Source: Chloroflexota bacterium
Lineage (GTDB): Bacteria; Chloroflexota; Chloroflexia; QHBQ01
Direction of reading: 5' to 3'
Length of the DNA: 64,000 bases
NCBI GenBank assembly: GCA_025355955.1
Contig: JANXYP010000278.1
Coordinates: 284-64,283, forward strand
How positions within the stretch are numbered: position 1 is the stretch's first letter; every line of letters starts with the position of its first letter. The notes below the pieces were generated by a model. The model searched no databases and had not been told where the DNA came from. It saw only the letters and a program-made list of their open reading frames with translations. Made by a program: the position numbers and the translations under genes. Below, piece after piece: positions 52,761 through 58,280 of this stretch.

Positions 52761-53687
52761 TCAGCACTGACGTAACCACCGTCGGCTGGGCCAGGCGAGG
52801 ATGAAGACGCTATAGCCGTTGGACATGATTTCGGTTTCGCAGGCAAGCTGGCGGTTATTTGGCGCAAAGGTGAGCAGGTCGGGGGCGCTAGCCTGGCGGT
52901 TGCTGCGCGAGAGGTATAGTTCGGTGGCGGGATGCGTCCAGGGGATTAGCGTATTAGGGGCAAGGTAGCCATTGCCCAGCCGCTTCATCGCAGGCGAGAC
53001 GACCACGTAGCGCACTGCTAGAATCGGTTGGCCCGCGTCAATGCTGCTGCCCAGGTCGGGACGTGGGGTGACGACCAGCAGGGCGACGGCGGCGGTGTGA
53101 CTCTCCACGTAGTGGCGGGCGGTGGCCTCGAAGCTGGTTTTGTATATTTTGGTTAGCTTGCGGATGGTGCTGATGCCGATGCGGTAGTCGGCTACCTCTC
53201 GCTCGAAGCGGTCACCGAGGAAGGCGCACTCGCTGGCGAACCAGTTGGCATCCTGCTCCAGAGTGGCGAGCGCTTCAGGACTCATATCCAGTTCGCTACA
53301 CTGGTAGAACAGTTCGCGGTGCCAGGGTAGGGTGAAGTGGCCCAGTTCGTGAAAGATACAGAAGCGACGGGGGTCGGGCAGGAGGCTGTTGTGGGTGAGA
53401 ACTACGTTGTCCGCCATGTCGAGAATGCCCCGCACCTTCACGTCAATGTCCATGCGGGCCAGCAGTTCGCGCTTGGCCGCCCGCTTGGCCGACTCGCGTT
53501 GTCCAGCGAGCAGGGGCGGTAGTCGGTCGGAATAGGCAAAGGTTTCGCTATCCAGTTTGCAGGCGGCTAGCAGGGTGTCGGTAGAGGCAGGGGGGTCGCT
53601 GATGCCGCACTCACGCAGCAGCGCAAGTGCGGCTTGTCTAATCTCTGCCCGCAGGGCGCGGACTTCGCTGGCGGTGGCTGACGGCAT
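52761..53687 (-). CDS. ImmA/IrrE-family zinc metallopeptidase
   Basis: RRFCIFHELGHF (HExxH), LEQDANWFASE, HTH-like TSFEAT and a C-terminal extension. Confidence 0.88.
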   Translation of the reverse strand: MPSATASEVRALRAEIRQAALALLRECGISDPPASTDTLLAACKLDSETFAYSDRLPPLLAGQRESAKRAAKRELLARMDIDVKVRGILDMADNVVLTHNSLLPDPRRFCIFHELGHFTLPWHRELFYQCSELDMSPEALATLEQDANWFASECAFLGDRFEREVADYRIGISTIRKLTKIYKTSFEATARHYVESHTAAVALLVVTPRPDLGSSIDAGQPILAVRYVVVSPAMKRLGNGYLAPNTLIPWTHPATELYLSRSNRQASAPDLLTFAPNNRQLACETEIMSNGYSVFILAWPSRRWLRQC

Positions 53688-53745: not shown

Positions 53746-54132
53746 CTAGCCCCGTTGTTGTTTCTGCCGCTTGAAGCGTAGGAACTTTACGAAATCCTGC
53801 ACCTCTTCGACCTCCTCATCGCTGAGGTCATCAATGATGTTGAAGGCGGCACGACCGGGACTGGTGGCGGTTTCGCGCTGATTGAGGTAGCCCGCCTGGG
53901 TCATCAGGCTCTCGTAGCTGATATTGTATACTACAGCCAACCGCTGCAGGTTGCGCGGCGAGGGCTGGTCGATGTAACCGTTCTCCAACTGGCTGAGATA
54001 GCTGTTGCTGATGGTGGTGCGCTCTTCGATTTCGCGCAGGGTCAGGCCGTGCTGCTTACGCAACTCGCGCAGATAGTGGCCGAACTTGCTGGCCTGCTCG
54101 GCGGCACGGGGGTTCTTAATCGGCTCCGTCAT
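53746..54132 (-). CDS. XRE/Cro-CI family HTH repressor
   Basis: LRELRKQHGLTLREIEERTTISNSYLSQLENG; C-terminal LSDEEVEEVQDFVKFL. Confidence 0.93.
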   Translation of the reverse strand: MTEPIKNPRAAEQASKFGHYLRELRKQHGLTLREIEERTTISNSYLSQLENGYIDQPSPRNLQRLAVVYNISYESLMTQAGYLNQRETATSPGRAAFNIIDDLSDEEVEEVQDFVKFLRFKRQKQQRG

Positions 54133-54185
54133 TTTATGCTCCTCTTTCCAGTTTTATCTAAGCCGATTCCGGTTCGGTCGTACGT

Positions 54186-54291
54186 ATGTGGTAGGGCGAA
54201 CCGTTGTTCGCCCCTACAGATCTGGTTCGGACGCGCCTATGTGGCAGGGCGAACCGTTGTTCGCCCCTACAGATCTGGTTCGGACGCGCCC
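54186..54291. repeat. 53-bp tandem REP-containing duplication overlapping the MazG-like 3' end
   Basis: atgtgg(t/c)agggcgaaccgttgttcgcccctacagatctggttcggacgcgcc x2. Confidence 0.88.
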
Positions 54292-54650
54292 ACGTAGTGC
54301 GTCCATTTCTTGTTGCTGCCCTTTGCCAGATGCGCGGGGTAGCGATGCTCGTTGATTGCCATCTTTTCCTTGTAGACTGCGCTCAGATCGAGACCCAGTT
54401 GCAGGCAGATAGTCATGATGAAATAGAATACATCGGCGACCTCGTAGCCAACCTCGCGGTAGTGGTCGGGGTCGGTCAGGTACTCGCGCACCTCAGCATC
54501 AGACTTGAAGCGCACGTGTTCTAGAATCTCGCCCACCTCGAGGCTCATCGCCAGGGTTAGATCCTTCAGCTCATCGTGCTGCCAGTCGCGGGCAACGATG
54601 TACTGGCGGCAGATCTCCTTCAGTTCGCCAATTGTGGTAGTCTCATCCAT
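54267..54650 (-). CDS. MazG-like nucleotide pyrophosphohydrolase
   Basis: ARDWQH..KDLTLAMSLEVGEILE, EVADVF, KMAINEHRYP. Confidence 0.9.
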   Translation of the reverse strand: MDETTTIGELKEICRQYIVARDWQHDELKDLTLAMSLEVGEILEHVRFKSDAEVREYLTDPDHYREVGYEVADVFYFIMTICLQLGLDLSAVYKEKMAINEHRYPAHLAKGSNKKWTHYVGASEPDL

Positions 54651-54820
54651 AATGAATGTAGAAGGTAGAATGTAGAATCTGGCATATAAGCAGCTAGTCT
54701 GAATAGGGTGAACAACGGTTCGCCCCTACGAACCACGCAAGTCTTTTGGTAACTTTTTCAGCATTCAGCACTCAAACTTCAGCACTCAACACTACTCATA
54801 GCTCATGCCTCATGCCTGCT

Positions 54821-54849
54821 AGTATAGCACAGTTTTTCCAAAATTGCAA
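54821..54849 (-). promoter_or_regulatory. Leftward sigma-70 promoter (mazG-xre-immA)
   Basis: TTGCAA-N17-TATACT on the minus strand. Confidence 0.65.
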
Positions 54850-54853
54850 GGGT

Positions 54854-54925
54854 TTTGCCCAGTTTGCCAAAATGGGCAAATATCAGTTTAACAAACTGGG
54901 CAAAAGGCTTGACAAACTGGGCAAA
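54854..54925. promoter_or_regulatory. Operator-like array of (C)AAACTGGGCAAA
   Basis: Inverted copy 54854-66, variant 54868-80, direct copies 54891-904 and 54912-25 (21 bp apart). Confidence 0.75.
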
Positions 54926-54937
54926 GTCTGTTATGAT
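54909..54937 (+). promoter_or_regulatory. Rightward sigma-70 promoter
   Basis: TTGACA-N17-TATGAT. Confidence 0.75.
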
Positions 54938-54955
54938 AAGCGCAACAAGAAAAGA

Positions 54956-54969
54956 CGAACGGATGTTCG
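54956..54969. promoter_or_regulatory. Candidate LexA (Gram-positive-type SOS) box
   Basis: CGAAC-GGAT-GTTCG just downstream of the -10; not embedded in a REP. Confidence 0.6.
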
Positions 54970-55040
54970 TAAGATGGCACGATTTATGCCTTAGTAACCG
55001 CATAGAGCGATATAGTTTGCATACAGATAGGAGCAAGACC

Positions 55041-55442
55041 ATGATGCAGGCACAGATGGGCAATCGAGTGATAACCGCGCCGACCACGAATTGGCGCACC
55101 GCTGGCACGCTAACCGGGGTGGCAGCGGCGACGGTGGCGGCCAACGTGCTGATGGCGCTAGGTTGGAGCCACCTGCTAGGCAGCGATGTATGGCTGGTGC
55201 AGGCGGCTGGCTGGCTGCGCCTGGTCTGGCTGCTCGGTTTCGGCGTGCTGATGGCAAGCAACAATGCGCTGGCTGCGCTAGCGCTGTGGGGCTGGGCGCG
55301 GCGATTGCAGCAGCAGTCTGAGATGCGTAAGCTGGTACGCTGGGCGCGACAGGAGCAAGCTCCGCGCCTGGGCCACAGCTTCTCGCTGGTTGCGCTGCCC
55401 GCGCTGGTGCTGCTTGCCCCCGCCCTGCTGCTGCTGATATAA
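55041..55442 (+). CDS. Small hydrophobic membrane protein (133 aa)
   Basis: AGGAG RBS then ATG at 55041; 3-4 hydrophobic segments. Confidence 0.7.
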   Translation: MMQAQMGNRVITAPTTNWRTAGTLTGVAAATVAANVLMALGWSHLLGSDVWLVQAAGWLRLVWLLGFGVLMASNNALAALALWGWARRLQQQSEMRKLVRWARQEQAPRLGHSFSLVALPALVLLAPALLLLI

Positions 55443-55546
55443 TCAGCAAAGCACAGAATATATGGTTGACCACACTCGCCTCTGAACACAGAGGCGAGTG
55501 TGCTTTTAGTTAGCGTACCCTTCTCCTGCCTTCTACCCTCTACCTT

Positions 55547-56722
55547 CTACACTCCCAATACCTGACGATAGCCCGCCACCGTCGCCATTGCGGTTCGCTC
55601 CCAGGTGAAGCGGGCGGCCTGCTGTGGCCCTCGCGCCCTTAGCTCCGTCTGCTTGGCCTCATCGTTCAACACCGCCAGCATCGCGGTGCGGAGGTTGGCG
55701 GGGTCGTGCGCGTCCACCAGGATGCCCGCATCGCCGACCACCTCGGGCAGACTGGAGCCATTGGCGCATACGAGTGGTGTGCCACTTGCCAGCGCCTCCA
55801 GCGGATCGAGGCCGAAGCCTTCATAAAGGCTAGGAAAGACGAACAGTCCCGCCGCTGCATACAGCGCGGCCTTGTCGGCATCGCTGACCCTTCCCAGCCA
55901 GCGTACCTTGTCGCCCAACCCCAAGCGTTGTGCCTCACCCTGCACATCAGGGAAGAGCGCGGGGTTGGAGAGCCGCGCCTTATCGTCGGGCGGCTTGCCC
56001 GCAATTGCCAGCACGCGGGGCGAGTCCATATCGGTTAGCGCAGCGGCATAAGCCCGTAGCAGGCCAATCACGTTCTTACGCACGTCAAATCCGCCGATGT
56101 AGAAGATATATCCCTCCGGCAAGCCGAACCGCGCCCGCGTCTCTGCCTGCTGCTCCACGCTGGCGGGATGATACTGCGCCCCCACCGCCAGGTAGGTCAC
56201 CTTCACCCGCTGCTCTGGTACGCGCAGCAACGCGATGATGTCGCGTTTGGAACACAGCGAGTCGGTGAGAATTAGCCGCGCTCGCCGTGCGGTCATGGTC
56301 GCTAGCCGCAGGTAGATGCGGAATAGCAGCGAACCGCGATAGGCAGGCAGCCGCAGTGGGATAAGGTCGTGAACTGTGACCACCAGCGGGCAGGGCTGCC
56401 GCAGCGGCGCGGCCATGTAAGGCGAGTGCAGCAAGTCCATACTCAACATTCGTGCCGCATCGCCCATCTCCACCTGCTCCCACCACAACTCGCGCAGGTT
56501 ATCGCTCATCTCCCAGCGCCCTTGCACCTGGTAGTGCGCCCCCAGTGCGGCATCGGAGTCGCTTGCCACTTTCTGCTCCGGCGGATGCAGCAGCGTCGCC
56601 CGCAGATCGCCGCCGACTAGCCCAGCCGCGTGCAAGGCCCGCCACAATTCGCGGGTATACTGCCCGCTGCCGGTGAACGGCTTATCCCAGAAGTACCCAT
56701 TGATGCCAACCCGCTTCAGCAA
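55547..56722 (-). CDS. GT4 (glycosyltransferase family 1-type) glycosyltransferase
   Basis: VTVHDLIP, RKNVIGLL, FVFPSLYEGFGLDPLEALASG; TTG start after GGGGAG. Confidence 0.92.
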   Translation of the reverse strand: MLKRVGINGYFWDKPFTGSGQYTRELWRALHAAGLVGGDLRATLLHPPEQKVASDSDAALGAHYQVQGRWEMSDNLRELWWEQVEMGDAARMLSMDLLHSPYMAAPLRQPCPLVVTVHDLIPLRLPAYRGSLLFRIYLRLATMTARRARLILTDSLCSKRDIIALLRVPEQRVKVTYLAVGAQYHPASVEQQAETRARFGLPEGYIFYIGGFDVRKNVIGLLRAYAAALTDMDSPRVLAIAGKPPDDKARLSNPALFPDVQGEAQRLGLGDKVRWLGRVSDADKAALYAAAGLFVFPSLYEGFGLDPLEALASGTPLVCANGSSLPEVVGDAGILVDAHDPANLRTAMLAVLNDEAKQTELRARGPQQAARFTWERTAMATVAGYRQVLGV

Positions 56723-57507: not shown

Positions 57508-58092
57508 TTAAGCCATGCTGAAGGTTGGCACGAACGCGGCTGCCCTTTGCTCTTCCTGCACCATAATCTCTTGCAAACTATGGAGGGCGCGATATTGCAG
57601 GGCGCGAATCGCGCCTTCCTTCTTGTTCATCATTCGGGCGATGTCGGCGTTATCGTAGCCTTCGATGAACTTGAAGTGGATGACCTGACGTTGTTCGCCG
57701 GTGAGCTGGCCGATTGCCTGGCGCAACTCCTGGGCCTGGATGCTGTTTAGCAGCGCAATTTCGGGGTCGACTGGCTCCTCACGGGTAACAATCGTATCAT
57801 CGAGCGGCAGGCTCTCGCGGTGGGTGCGGTAGTGGTCGACCACCAGGTTGTGAGCCAGGCGATAGAGCCACGAGGAGAAAGGATACCCAGTCCAGGTGTA
57901 GCGCTCGATTGCCTCCCAGGCCTTGAGGAATGCTTGCCCACAGAGGTCTTCGGCCTCGGACGCATCGCCCACCTTGTAGTAAATATAGCGGTAAATCTTC
58001 TCAACGTAATGGCTATAGAGTTCAGCGAACGCCGCTTCGTCGCGCTTCGTTGCTCGCTGTACCAGGTCTGCCTCGCTGCACGTCAGAGCCAT
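57508..58092 (-). CDS. ECF sigma factor
   Basis: AFAELYSHY, AEDLCGQAFLKAW, FSSWLYRLAHN, LTGEQRQVI, GAIRALQYRAL. Confidence 0.93.
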   Translation of the reverse strand: MALTCSEADLVQRATKRDEAAFAELYSHYVEKIYRYIYYKVGDASEAEDLCGQAFLKAWEAIERYTWTGYPFSSWLYRLAHNLVVDHYRTHRESLPLDDTIVTREEPVDPEIALLNSIQAQELRQAIGQLTGEQRQVIHFKFIEGYDNADIARMMNKKEGAIRALQYRALHSLQEIMVQEEQRAAAFVPTFSMA

Positions 58093-58280
58093 AATGTTTC
58101 CTCCTTGATTATCGCCGCAAAACTACTTTATTACATAATTTTGGTTATTAGTAGACGGTTAAGTATAAAGCAACATTTGTGCCACACTCGTACCTCCTTT
58201 GTTATCCGCCCCGATTATGTTATAATTCAAGTACAAACCATTCGCCGCCTGCAGTTACCTCGCGGCAAGGAGGAGCAGCA

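Follow-up and report, generated by a model that had tools for sequence, protein, structure and literature searches.

Positions 54821-54990 of the window, the 64,000-nucleotide stretch of Chloroflexota DNA analysed here, separate a leftward set of genes for a mazG-like protein, an XRE-family repressor and an M78 peptidase from a rightward gene for an orphan membrane protein of 133 residues. From the sequence we consider it probable that this is the control region of a chromosomal repressor/protease module that responds to DNA damage, of the IrrE/DdrO (CapP/CapH, ImmA/ImmR) kind. The switch is of a known kind; what is new is that throughout an order of Chloroflexota it serves a single orphan membrane protein, that the mazG-like gene, a LexA-type box and a sigma-54-like element were added stepwise, and that there is a probable double lock. 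Elsewhere, IrrE/DdrO and CapP/CapH pairs are known to govern the repair genes of Deinococcus as master regulators and to act as gatekeepers for immune operons that are mobile. Here, in contrast, such a pair would be a fixed feature of the chromosome of a Chloroflexota lineage, with a single dedicated promoter region and a cargo without known relatives.

What evidence carries this reading? There is, first, the conservation of the control region. Nine loci of the window's type (clade g1) could be compared: the window itself, two further genomes from its genus and six contigs from metagenomes. All nine retain a leftward promoter, PL, a rightward promoter, PR, and four copies of a short repeat, with hexamers and spacing kept; across the same loci the synonymous divergence of the membrane-protein gene is 0.43-1.03, and the 5' leader of the leftward operon cannot be aligned between them. 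By this comparison the promoters, the repeats and the gene layout are conserved far beyond neutral expectation. The -35 hexamer of PR is invariant in 9/9 loci and the PL hexamers are retained in related loci; PR is also found in a second genus, g2, and in a second family, f3. Where the contigs reach, the gene order is Methyltransf_28, M78, xre, mazG-like, control region, membrane protein, and the neighbours on the right-hand side vary.

The repeats are four exact copies of AAAMTGGGCAAA within 72 bp (54854-54925), designated operators O1 to O4. In the whole genome (5.15 Mb) the exact sequence occurs six times, four of these in the control region; with at most one mismatch it occurs five times in the window against 0.34 expected, a number that 0/100 shuffles attain. 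The relaxed form AAA-N4-GCAAA gives no other cluster (at least three per 100 bp) in the genome, and the four 12-mers, AAAnTnnGCAAA, are essentially unique to the control region. O1 and O2 form an inverted repeat with arms of 13+13 nt lying 1 nt apart, O3 and O4 are direct repeats, and O1 and O3 are each oriented in the direction of transcription from the adjoining promoter. The initial annotation had described four repeats between back-to-back promoters, TTGCAA-17-TATACT leftward and TTGACA-17-TATGAT rightward, with one palindromic pair and two copies 21 bp apart. A promoter scan recovers both promoters, the PR hexamers with 11/12 consensus matches, and both are predicted to be of the sigma-70 type; all four repeats were located, and the recomputed geometry gives the O1/O2 palindrome and a distance of 21 bp between the starts of O3 and O4. 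One further statement, that a repeat overlaps the rightward -35, is right for O4 but only by its first base, the rest of O4 filling the spacer. An Rfam scan of 54600-55600 for a known RNA element returned spurious microRNA matches on the inverted repeat alone.

The second line of evidence is the nature of the regulators. By profile and by fold, the XRE/M78 pair is of the IrrE/DdrO - CapP/CapH class. The XRE protein, an HTH repressor with a C-terminal extension, matches Pfam HTH_3 (3.5e-15) and PADLOC capH (1.8e-12; residues 14-118 cover model positions 4-98 of 103), and its best sequence matches in the PDB are CapH (7t5u), DdrO (6jq1/6rnx) and ImmR (7t8i). The peptidase matches Pfam PF06114 (2.2e-6, above cut-off) and PADLOC capP (6.9e-19), and its best sequence matches in the PDB are CapP and an IrrE orthologue. 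It has the HExxH motif as HELGH, and residues H113, E114, H117 and E144 are invariant in 12 homologues; the H-to-E spacing is 27, as in IrrE. An AF2 model of the peptidase has a mean pLDDT of 62, reaching ~80 only in residues 170-300. Used in Foldseek, it gives full-length matches to PprI with single-stranded DNA (ssDNA) (8sln; E 7.8e-10, TM 0.62 on target), to IrrE (3dte) and to CapP (7t5t). The modelled architecture is one of three domains with a GAF-like sensor domain at the C terminus, and by analogy the peptidase is the probable damage sensor, a role missing from the initial annotation. In this class ssDNA activates the protease, which cleaves the repressor (bioRxiv 10.1101/2022.04.27.489752; PMC10904395; PMC12828697). 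Given the membership of the pair in that class, we infer that ssDNA-triggered cleavage of the repressor is the best mechanism to propose here.

Third, the same unit recurs in other genera. M78, xre and a divergent membrane-protein gene occur together in two genera of family f1 (g1 and g2) and in one of family f3 (g4), the M78 orthologues being 56-57% identical in g2 and 39-44% identical in f3, including one on a 2.6-Mb replicon. Candidatus Chlorohelix allophototropha carries the core of the module but neither the LexA box nor the sigma-54 element. The divergent membrane proteins of g2 and f3 align with the 133-aa family, sharing AAN in helix 1, GFG/LFG and an Asn in helix 2, and RxxVRW. Operators are recognisable in g2 and f3 as well, with a core ACTnnGCAA at the same promoter positions. 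In one f3 genome (G020) there is a perfect inverted pair, TTTGCTAAGTTT...AAACTTAGCAAA, whose second copy lies in the PR spacer after TTGACA; another genome (G006) has the pair TTGCACAGT...ACTGTGCAA. The counterpart of O4 is retained in f3, where it forms an inverted pair with O1. The recognition helix of XRE, SNSYLSQ-E-G, is almost invariant across families f1 and f3. That xre, M78, the operators and the membrane protein form a constant unit across families is the main argument that XRE is likely to be the operator-binding protein. The initial annotation had proposed a dedicated repressor acting on both promoters, with the nearby XRE as the best candidate, and the proposal gains from the recurrent pairing in three genera, the related operators and the stable recognition helix. 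The locus is present in 5/5 sampled genomes of family f1, in 5/10 of f3 and in 0/28 of f2, most of the sampled f1 and f3 genomes being incomplete assemblies. The host is a Chloroheliales-like member of Chloroflexota, and the locus is chromosomal and vertically inherited.

Table 1. Features of the control region and its flanking genes, in window coordinates
Feature	Position	Strand	Description
M78 (COG2856) zinc metallopeptidase, IrrE/PprI/CapP type	52761-53687	-	308 aa from the conserved start; longest open reading frame to 53717
XRE-family repressor	53746-54132	-	128 aa, DdrO/CapH-like; proposed operator-binding protein
Two REP-like (repetitive extragenic palindromic) hairpins	54180-54290		Inserted between the mazG-like gene and xre; missing in related loci
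mazG-like / DCTPP1 (RS21-C6)-like nucleoside triphosphate pyrophosphohydrolase	54267-54650	-	127 aa; first leftward gene; g1-type clade only
Promoter PL (predicted)	54821-54849	-	TTGCAA (54849-54844), 17 nt, TATACT (54826-54821); extended TG
Operator O1	54854-54865	-	AAACTGGGCAAA on minus strand; 4 nt upstream of PL -35
Operator O2	54869-54880	+	AAAATGGGCAAA; inverted partner of O1, between the promoters; 9/12 columns invariant, 9 loci
Operator O3	54893-54904	+	AAACTGGGCAAA; 4 nt upstream of PR -35; 8/12 columns invariant, 9 loci
Promoter PR (predicted)	54909-54937	+	TTGACA (54909-54914), 17 nt, TATGAT (54932-54937); extended TG
Operator O4	54914-54925	+	AAACTGGGCAAA; in PR spacer, touches -35; 9/12 columns invariant, 9 loci
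LexA-type (Cheo) box	54956-54969		CGAAC-GGAT-GTTCG; 18 nt after PR -10; ~+12 to +25 from predicted PR start
Sigma-54-like element	54975-54990	+	TGGCAC-GATTT-ATGCC; directly after the LexA-type box
Orphan membrane-protein gene	55041-55442	+	133 aa; GGAG ribosome-binding site 55030-55033; real open reading frame
Intrinsic terminator of the membrane-protein gene	55471-55512	+	14-bp stem, then T-tract

How might the module work? PL would drive the operon of mazG-like, xre and M78 peptidase genes, and PR the gene of the orphan membrane protein. XRE dimers seated on the four sites would hold PR shut and autoregulate PL. DNA damage would yield ssDNA, and the GAF-bearing M78 peptidase would be activated; the activated peptidase would cleave XRE, and both promoters would fire. 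This would supply the cell with a dCTP-pyrophosphatase-like enzyme, with new repressor and protease and with the membrane protein. In the window's clade the GAAC-N4-GTTC box, lying ~12-25 nt downstream of the PR start, would probably give LexA a second lock, a roadblock placed relative to the -10 as the recA box is, and full expression would need both RecA-mediated cleavage of LexA and peptidase-mediated cleavage of XRE. The most speculative step is the last, in which the membrane protein would act as an effector of the damage response and stop the filament from growing or septating; we would expect it to be neither a DNA-binding antagonist nor an analogue of lambda Cro.

The leftward operon deserves a further word. 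The closest solved relative of the mazG-like protein is dCTP pyrophosphatase 1 (PDB 6sqw, 3.6e-13), and its match to Pfam MazG-like, at 7.8e-6, is slightly below the curated cut-off. The g2 and f3 loci lack the gene, and their leftward genes begin with xre. Where no REP insertion intervenes, 28-86 bp separate the mazG-like gene from xre, a spacing that supports a single leftward operon.

Several observations weigh against the model as set out, those on the LexA-type box, discussed separately below, included. Most of the repeats are in direct orientation, although palindromes are the usual targets of XRE dimers, and the role of XRE as operator binder, though likely, is read from gene adjacency. 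The region immediately upstream of xre has no operator copy, so autoregulation requires co-transcription from PL, which in the window must pass through the two REP hairpins. An additional exact 12-mer adjoins the promoter of the atp operon on its upstream side, and the sigma-54-like element points to a control more elaborate than this model. For the effector role there is the further difficulty that the 133-aa protein matches no family in Pfam, NCBIfam or PHROG.

The atp copy can be described more closely. The atp operon (C117:75560-75640, minus strand; an atpZ-like gene first) has a promoter TTGCAA-17-TATACT, with hexamers identical to those of PL, and an exact AAACTGGGCAAA precedes its -35 by 7 nt. 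One genome of the comparison (G002) has a changed form of this 12-mer and another (G001) has lost it, so that it is probably not an XRE target. A wider XRE regulon was considered and set aside: two single 12-mers lie elsewhere in the genome, one of them intracoding and the other that at the atp promoter, which is not conserved in G001.

Is the box downstream of PR a working LexA operator? The palindrome CGAAC-GGAT-GTTCG that the initial annotation placed after the rightward -10 is there (sequence CGAACGGATGTTCG), and positions 54957-54968 are a perfect GAAC-N4-GTTC. In the 5' untranslated region (UTR) its half-sites have a conservation of 0.93 against 0.67 for the spacer, ranking 1 among 77 dyad windows; strongly conserved half-sites around a variable spacer are the signature of a protein site. 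Two loci (G001 and L020) retain all eight half-site bases despite a synonymous difference of 0.51-0.56, and from the synonymous divergence the neutral chance of such retention is ~0.1-0.3% for each. The box and the recA box are placed similarly with respect to their -10 hexamers. The host genome has two LexA paralogues, with genes at C370:~11250 and C266:~6915. The lexA1 promoter reads TTGACA-A-GAACAATTGTTC-T...TACAAT, lexA2 has GCACAAGCGTTC between -35 and -10, and in recA TAGAACATTTGTGC follows the -10 at a distance of 13 nt. Across three genera no block downstream of the -10 is better conserved than this recA box, TAGAACAnnTGkkC, and GAAC-N4-GTKC (GT(T/G)C) is a phylogenetic footprint at recA across the order that recurs in both lexA promoters of the host. 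On the strength of this computational footprinting, that is, the recA box conserved in three genera and the boxes in both lexA promoters, LexA of the order appears to use a box of the Gram-positive type; the LexA of Dehalococcoides, also in Chloroflexota, reportedly acts on such a box. The genes behind perfect promoter-embedded GAAC-N4-GTTC boxes are mostly not classical SOS genes, and for this reason the motif was validated at recA and lexA instead. One LexA paralogue, that with a perfect self-box, has Ala-Ser at the usual Ala-Gly cleavage site; the other has a canonical cleavage site and an imperfect box.

The opposing view is that CGAAC-GGAT-GTTCG is a chance or decaying palindrome, or a 5' stem-loop, and that XRE, perhaps with sigma-54, controls PR alone. 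We take this seriously as an alternative, while holding it to be the less probable one. The box is perfect in five of the nine loci, has one mismatch in three (L018, L022, L021) and is lost in one (L016), and it is absent from the g2 and f3 loci and restricted to one clade. On a position weight matrix (PWM) trained on six sites of the recA/lexA type, and thus small and overfitted, it scores 12.2 bits against 18-25 for the recA/lexA boxes, and ~157 genome positions score as high or higher. Its spacer is G+C-rich and its flanks are C/G, where the promoter-embedded boxes of the genome read A-GAAC-AWWT-GTTC-T. The pattern CGAAC-N4-GTTCG, with at most one mismatch, occurs 27 times in the window, and exactly 688 times in the genome; about 550 of the 688 are the core of a REP-like hairpin, GGGCGAAC(AACG/CGTT)GTTCGCCC. 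With such abundance the rarity of the pattern is unusable as an argument for the box. Finally, in g2 a different 7-bp hairpin occupies its place.

Two forms of this opposing view were tried and rejected. The box, read as a REP remnant, lacks the GGG/CCC flanks, and it keeps one fixed position in nine loci, whereas REP insertions vary by locus; its lack of REP flanks and its fixed place in orthologous loci make it an element separate from REP. The box as an RNA hairpin shows no compensatory changes, and the mismatches in L018 and L021 are uncompensated. Together with the conserved half-sites, the bases kept in G001 and L020 and the placement that mirrors the conserved recA box, these points lead us to lean towards LexA acting on the box in the host genome. 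The LexA input named in the initial annotation thus stands in part: the motif is the one used at recA and lexA and is the best-conserved dyad of the UTR, but it belongs to one clade, is imperfect in several loci and scores low. The comparison of homologous promoters that had been proposed there divides in the same way, the operators and both promoters being kept in nine loci and the box in its perfect form in 5/9.

Some side observations on these elements may be recorded. The REP-like hairpin GTAGGGGCGAACAACGGTTCGCCCCTAC lies at 54192-54215, 54245-54268 and 54704-54727 of the window and in ~20 further places, and three REP hairpins (~54197, 54250 and 54709) are within 800 bp of the control region. 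The REP hairpin core scores low (3 bits) on the recA/lexA PWM. The REP copies might titrate LexA. The g2 hairpin (L034 3290-3310) is a perfect 7-bp hairpin, GGAGCGTggcttACGCTCC, unrelated to the box and located downstream of the PR -10 where g1 has the box.

Beyond the box lies the sigma-54-like element, which is absent from the initial annotation and has the conserved general pattern TGGCAC-N5-nTGC. It is a possible second promoter or other site. The GG and GC at sigma-54 spacing (GG-N10-GC) are both retained in 6/9 g1 loci and also in g2. The -12 half is weak in the window (ATGC), and G002 and g2 have TTGC. The g2 version, TGGCACGATCCTTGCC, is 66 nt from the ATG, as in g1, within a 5'UTR that is otherwise unalignable with that of g1 and is 42 nt longer. 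The gene rpoN was found in the host genome and six relatives, and the consensus TGGCAC-N5-TTGCW occurs 16 times in the genome against ~5 expected, an enrichment of about threefold, the majority of copies lying just upstream of genes. No candidate enhancer-binding protein for the element was identified. From these features a functional sigma-54 promoter at 54975-54990 is possible, with the balance tipping somewhat against it. A conserved block, TGGCACGATnnnTGCCTTAG (window 54975-54996; L034 3350-3371; L036 3610-3631), resembles a sigma-54 -24/-12 element. Stretches of the type GCAC(A/G)(G/A)TTT flank the operator array (54826-54841; 54977-54990), TAGCACAGTTTTTCC lying within the PL spacer and TGGCACGATTTATGCC within the UTR; their G002 versions have GCACAGTTTTT in common.

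What is the membrane protein? Its dN/dS of 0.21-0.40 against eight orthologues indicates purifying selection. Its occurrence is restricted to one order of Chloroflexota. Of its three hydrophobic helices the first two are rich in Ala, Trp and Asn and the third is strongly hydrophobic; it also has a basic amphipathic loop with 7 Arg/Lys in residues 86-112, from which the positive-inside rule predicts an N-in/C-out topology. The AF2 model is all-helical (pLDDT 66, pTM 0.33) and was judged of insufficient quality for fold comparison. Among 5.8 billion proteins searched there were ten homologues, one of them labelled as coming from a Candidatus Chloroheliales metagenome-assembled genome. A profile search against 1.84 billion cluster representatives returned the protein's own cluster only, and a wider alignment of the family comprises ~20 clusters, all of unnamed proteins of Chloroflexia. 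A PADLOC match to BrxA, weak (E 0.0045) and over a hydrophobic stretch, was disregarded. That the protein is a division inhibitor or toxin is a guess by analogy; an effector role is guessed from the heavy repression of the gene and from the analogy with damage-induced membrane proteins. Like YneA, ChiZ, SosA, SidA and DidA, it is a small membrane protein behind a promoter apparently gated by DNA damage. Unlike them, it is larger and multi-pass and lacks sequence or domain similarity; family and profile searches gave no homology to YneA, ChiZ or SosA (no LysM, no shared domain). SidA and DidA are each under one separate damage pathway, LexA and DriD respectively, whereas here both pathways may converge on one promoter.

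Might the module serve defence instead? One can propose a toxin-antitoxin or anti-phage system of the RosmerTA or CapH-CapP-regulated kind, in which the membrane protein is a depolarising abortive-infection toxin, XRE and M78 are the regulator/antitoxin, and the trigger is phage-induced DNA damage in place of a housekeeping checkpoint. RosmerTA (RmrT/RmrA) has an ImmA/IrrE-family protease with a small, family-less, membrane-targeted protein, and in the published systems the ImmA-type protease antitoxin goes with varied toxins, one of them membrane-depolarising (PMC10440598). Both XRE and the peptidase match several PADLOC RmrA models, down to 2.6e-8 and 1.6e-6; CapH/CapP pairs are known regulators of immune operons; MazG-like enzymes are common in phage-related contexts (PHROG matches); and four operators with a LexA box amount to heavy repression, which suits a toxic product. 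The RmrA profile matches in PADLOC are nevertheless weaker than those to capH and capP for both proteins. RmrA is a fused HTH-peptidase (helix-turn-helix, HTH), co-transcribed with its toxin and usually borne on a prophage or island, whereas here the two are split, the cargo is divergent and the locus is chromosomal and syntenic. The same chromosomal neighbourhood, with the Methyltransf_28 gene to the left, is found in two genera; this and the distribution over families f1, f3 and f2 make a lineage pattern, as opposed to that of patchy mobile defence. No integrase, phage or other defence genes adjoin the locus, and the membrane protein has no meaningful match in PADLOC or PHROG. We consider a defence role unlikely.

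The damage-response module that we favour resembles the known systems to different degrees. Its pair shares with DdrO/IrrE (PprI) of Deinococcus a ~130-aa XRE repressor and a COG2856/M78 peptidase with peptidase, helical and GAF-like domains, and both pairs are chromosomal and vertically inherited. In fold the peptidase is closest to PprI and IrrE, and in sequence DdrO ranks among the closest matches of XRE. Cleavage of the repressor after DNA damage, with ssDNA sensing (PMC10904395), is assumed here by analogy. The DdrO regulon comprises ~20 repair genes reached through a 17-bp palindrome (RDRM), whereas here the motif is confined to a single intergenic region, in the form of 12-mers of which some are direct and some inverted, and the genes controlled would be those of a membrane protein and a dCTP-pyrophosphatase-like enzyme instead of repair genes. 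To our knowledge, ddrO and irrE are not adjacent in Deinococcus. With CapH/CapP the module has in common the adjacent gene pair, divergent from its cargo, and a repressor acting on the shared promoter region, which is predicted here; the best profile matches of the pair are capH and capP, and the CapP-type peptidase is stimulated by ssDNA (bioRxiv 10.1101/2022.04.27.489752). It differs in that the cargo is a single orphan membrane protein with no recognisable defence system, that the locus is lineage-conserved and not island-borne, that a mazG-like gene lies within the regulator operon, and that there are four sites and a LexA-type box as against one 22-bp site.

The back-to-back promoters and several operators, with the predicted autoregulation of the repressor and derepression by damage, are also features of ImmR/ImmA of the Bacillus subtilis element ICEBs1 and of lambda cI/Cro. 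Unlike those systems, the locus has no mobile element, integrase or excisionase, and the peptidase is of the long IrrE/CapP type and not the short ImmA type. The 'lambda-like' label of the initial annotation does not fit. There is no Cro-like second repressor, so bistability is not expected; the 133-aa rightward product has no HTH, and the arrangement corresponds to an autoregulated pair of repressor and protease with a cargo gene, as in DdrO/IrrE, CapH/CapP and ImmR/ImmA.

It is improbable that the four repeats are sites of activation or UP-like elements used by some other factor, for instance an enhancer-binding protein that works with the sigma-54-like promoter: they do lie ~75-145 bp upstream of the start predicted for that element, as enhancers typically do, O1 and O3 each precede a -35 by 4 nt and run along transcription, as an activator or UP site would, a further copy is 7 nt upstream of the atp -35 and rpoN is present, but O4 in the PR spacer is in a repressor position and is kept in f3, where no convincing sigma-54-like element was seen, g1 and g2 differ by 42 bp in how far the repeats are from TGGCAC but not in the register of the repeats with the sigma-70 hexamers, the constant partner of the repeats across families is xre and not any enhancer-binding gene, and the atp copy is not conserved.

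What evolutionary steps might account for the repressor/protease module as it stands in the window? One can imagine three inputs meeting on one promoter region, XRE via the ssDNA-sensing protease, RecA/LexA, and sigma-54, with the membrane protein as the checkpoint effector, a septation or growth inhibitor, of filamentous Chloroheliales. Assembly would have been stepwise, from an order-wide core of XRE/M78 and membrane protein, through the sigma-54 element in f1, to the LexA box and dCTP-pyrophosphatase gene in the g1-type clade. As a whole this scheme is quite unlikely to be right. If the LexA lock is real, the locus would be a natural example in which a single promoter receives signals from two independent DNA-damage sensors; if the damage response is real, it would be an entry point to the damage checkpoint of a group relevant to the evolution of phototrophy, the order including Candidatus Chlorohelix. 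The stepwise gain across genera would offer a readable history of how a circuit is assembled.

Two further loci bear on neighbouring questions. A consensus sigma-54 promoter, TGGCACAAATGTTGCT, lies at 58169-58184 (minus strand) of the window, ~80 nt upstream of a sigma-70-family gene (like those of the extracytoplasmic function, ECF, group) at 57508-58092, and that sigma factor gene may be under sigma-54 control. At C130:4883-5700 a strong promoter with an embedded perfect box, TTGACAAGAACAAATGTTCCATGTTATAAT, precedes the gene of a 210-aa single-pass membrane protein with a proline-rich N terminus, which on its sequence is a second candidate SOS-induced membrane effector and has a better box than that at PR.

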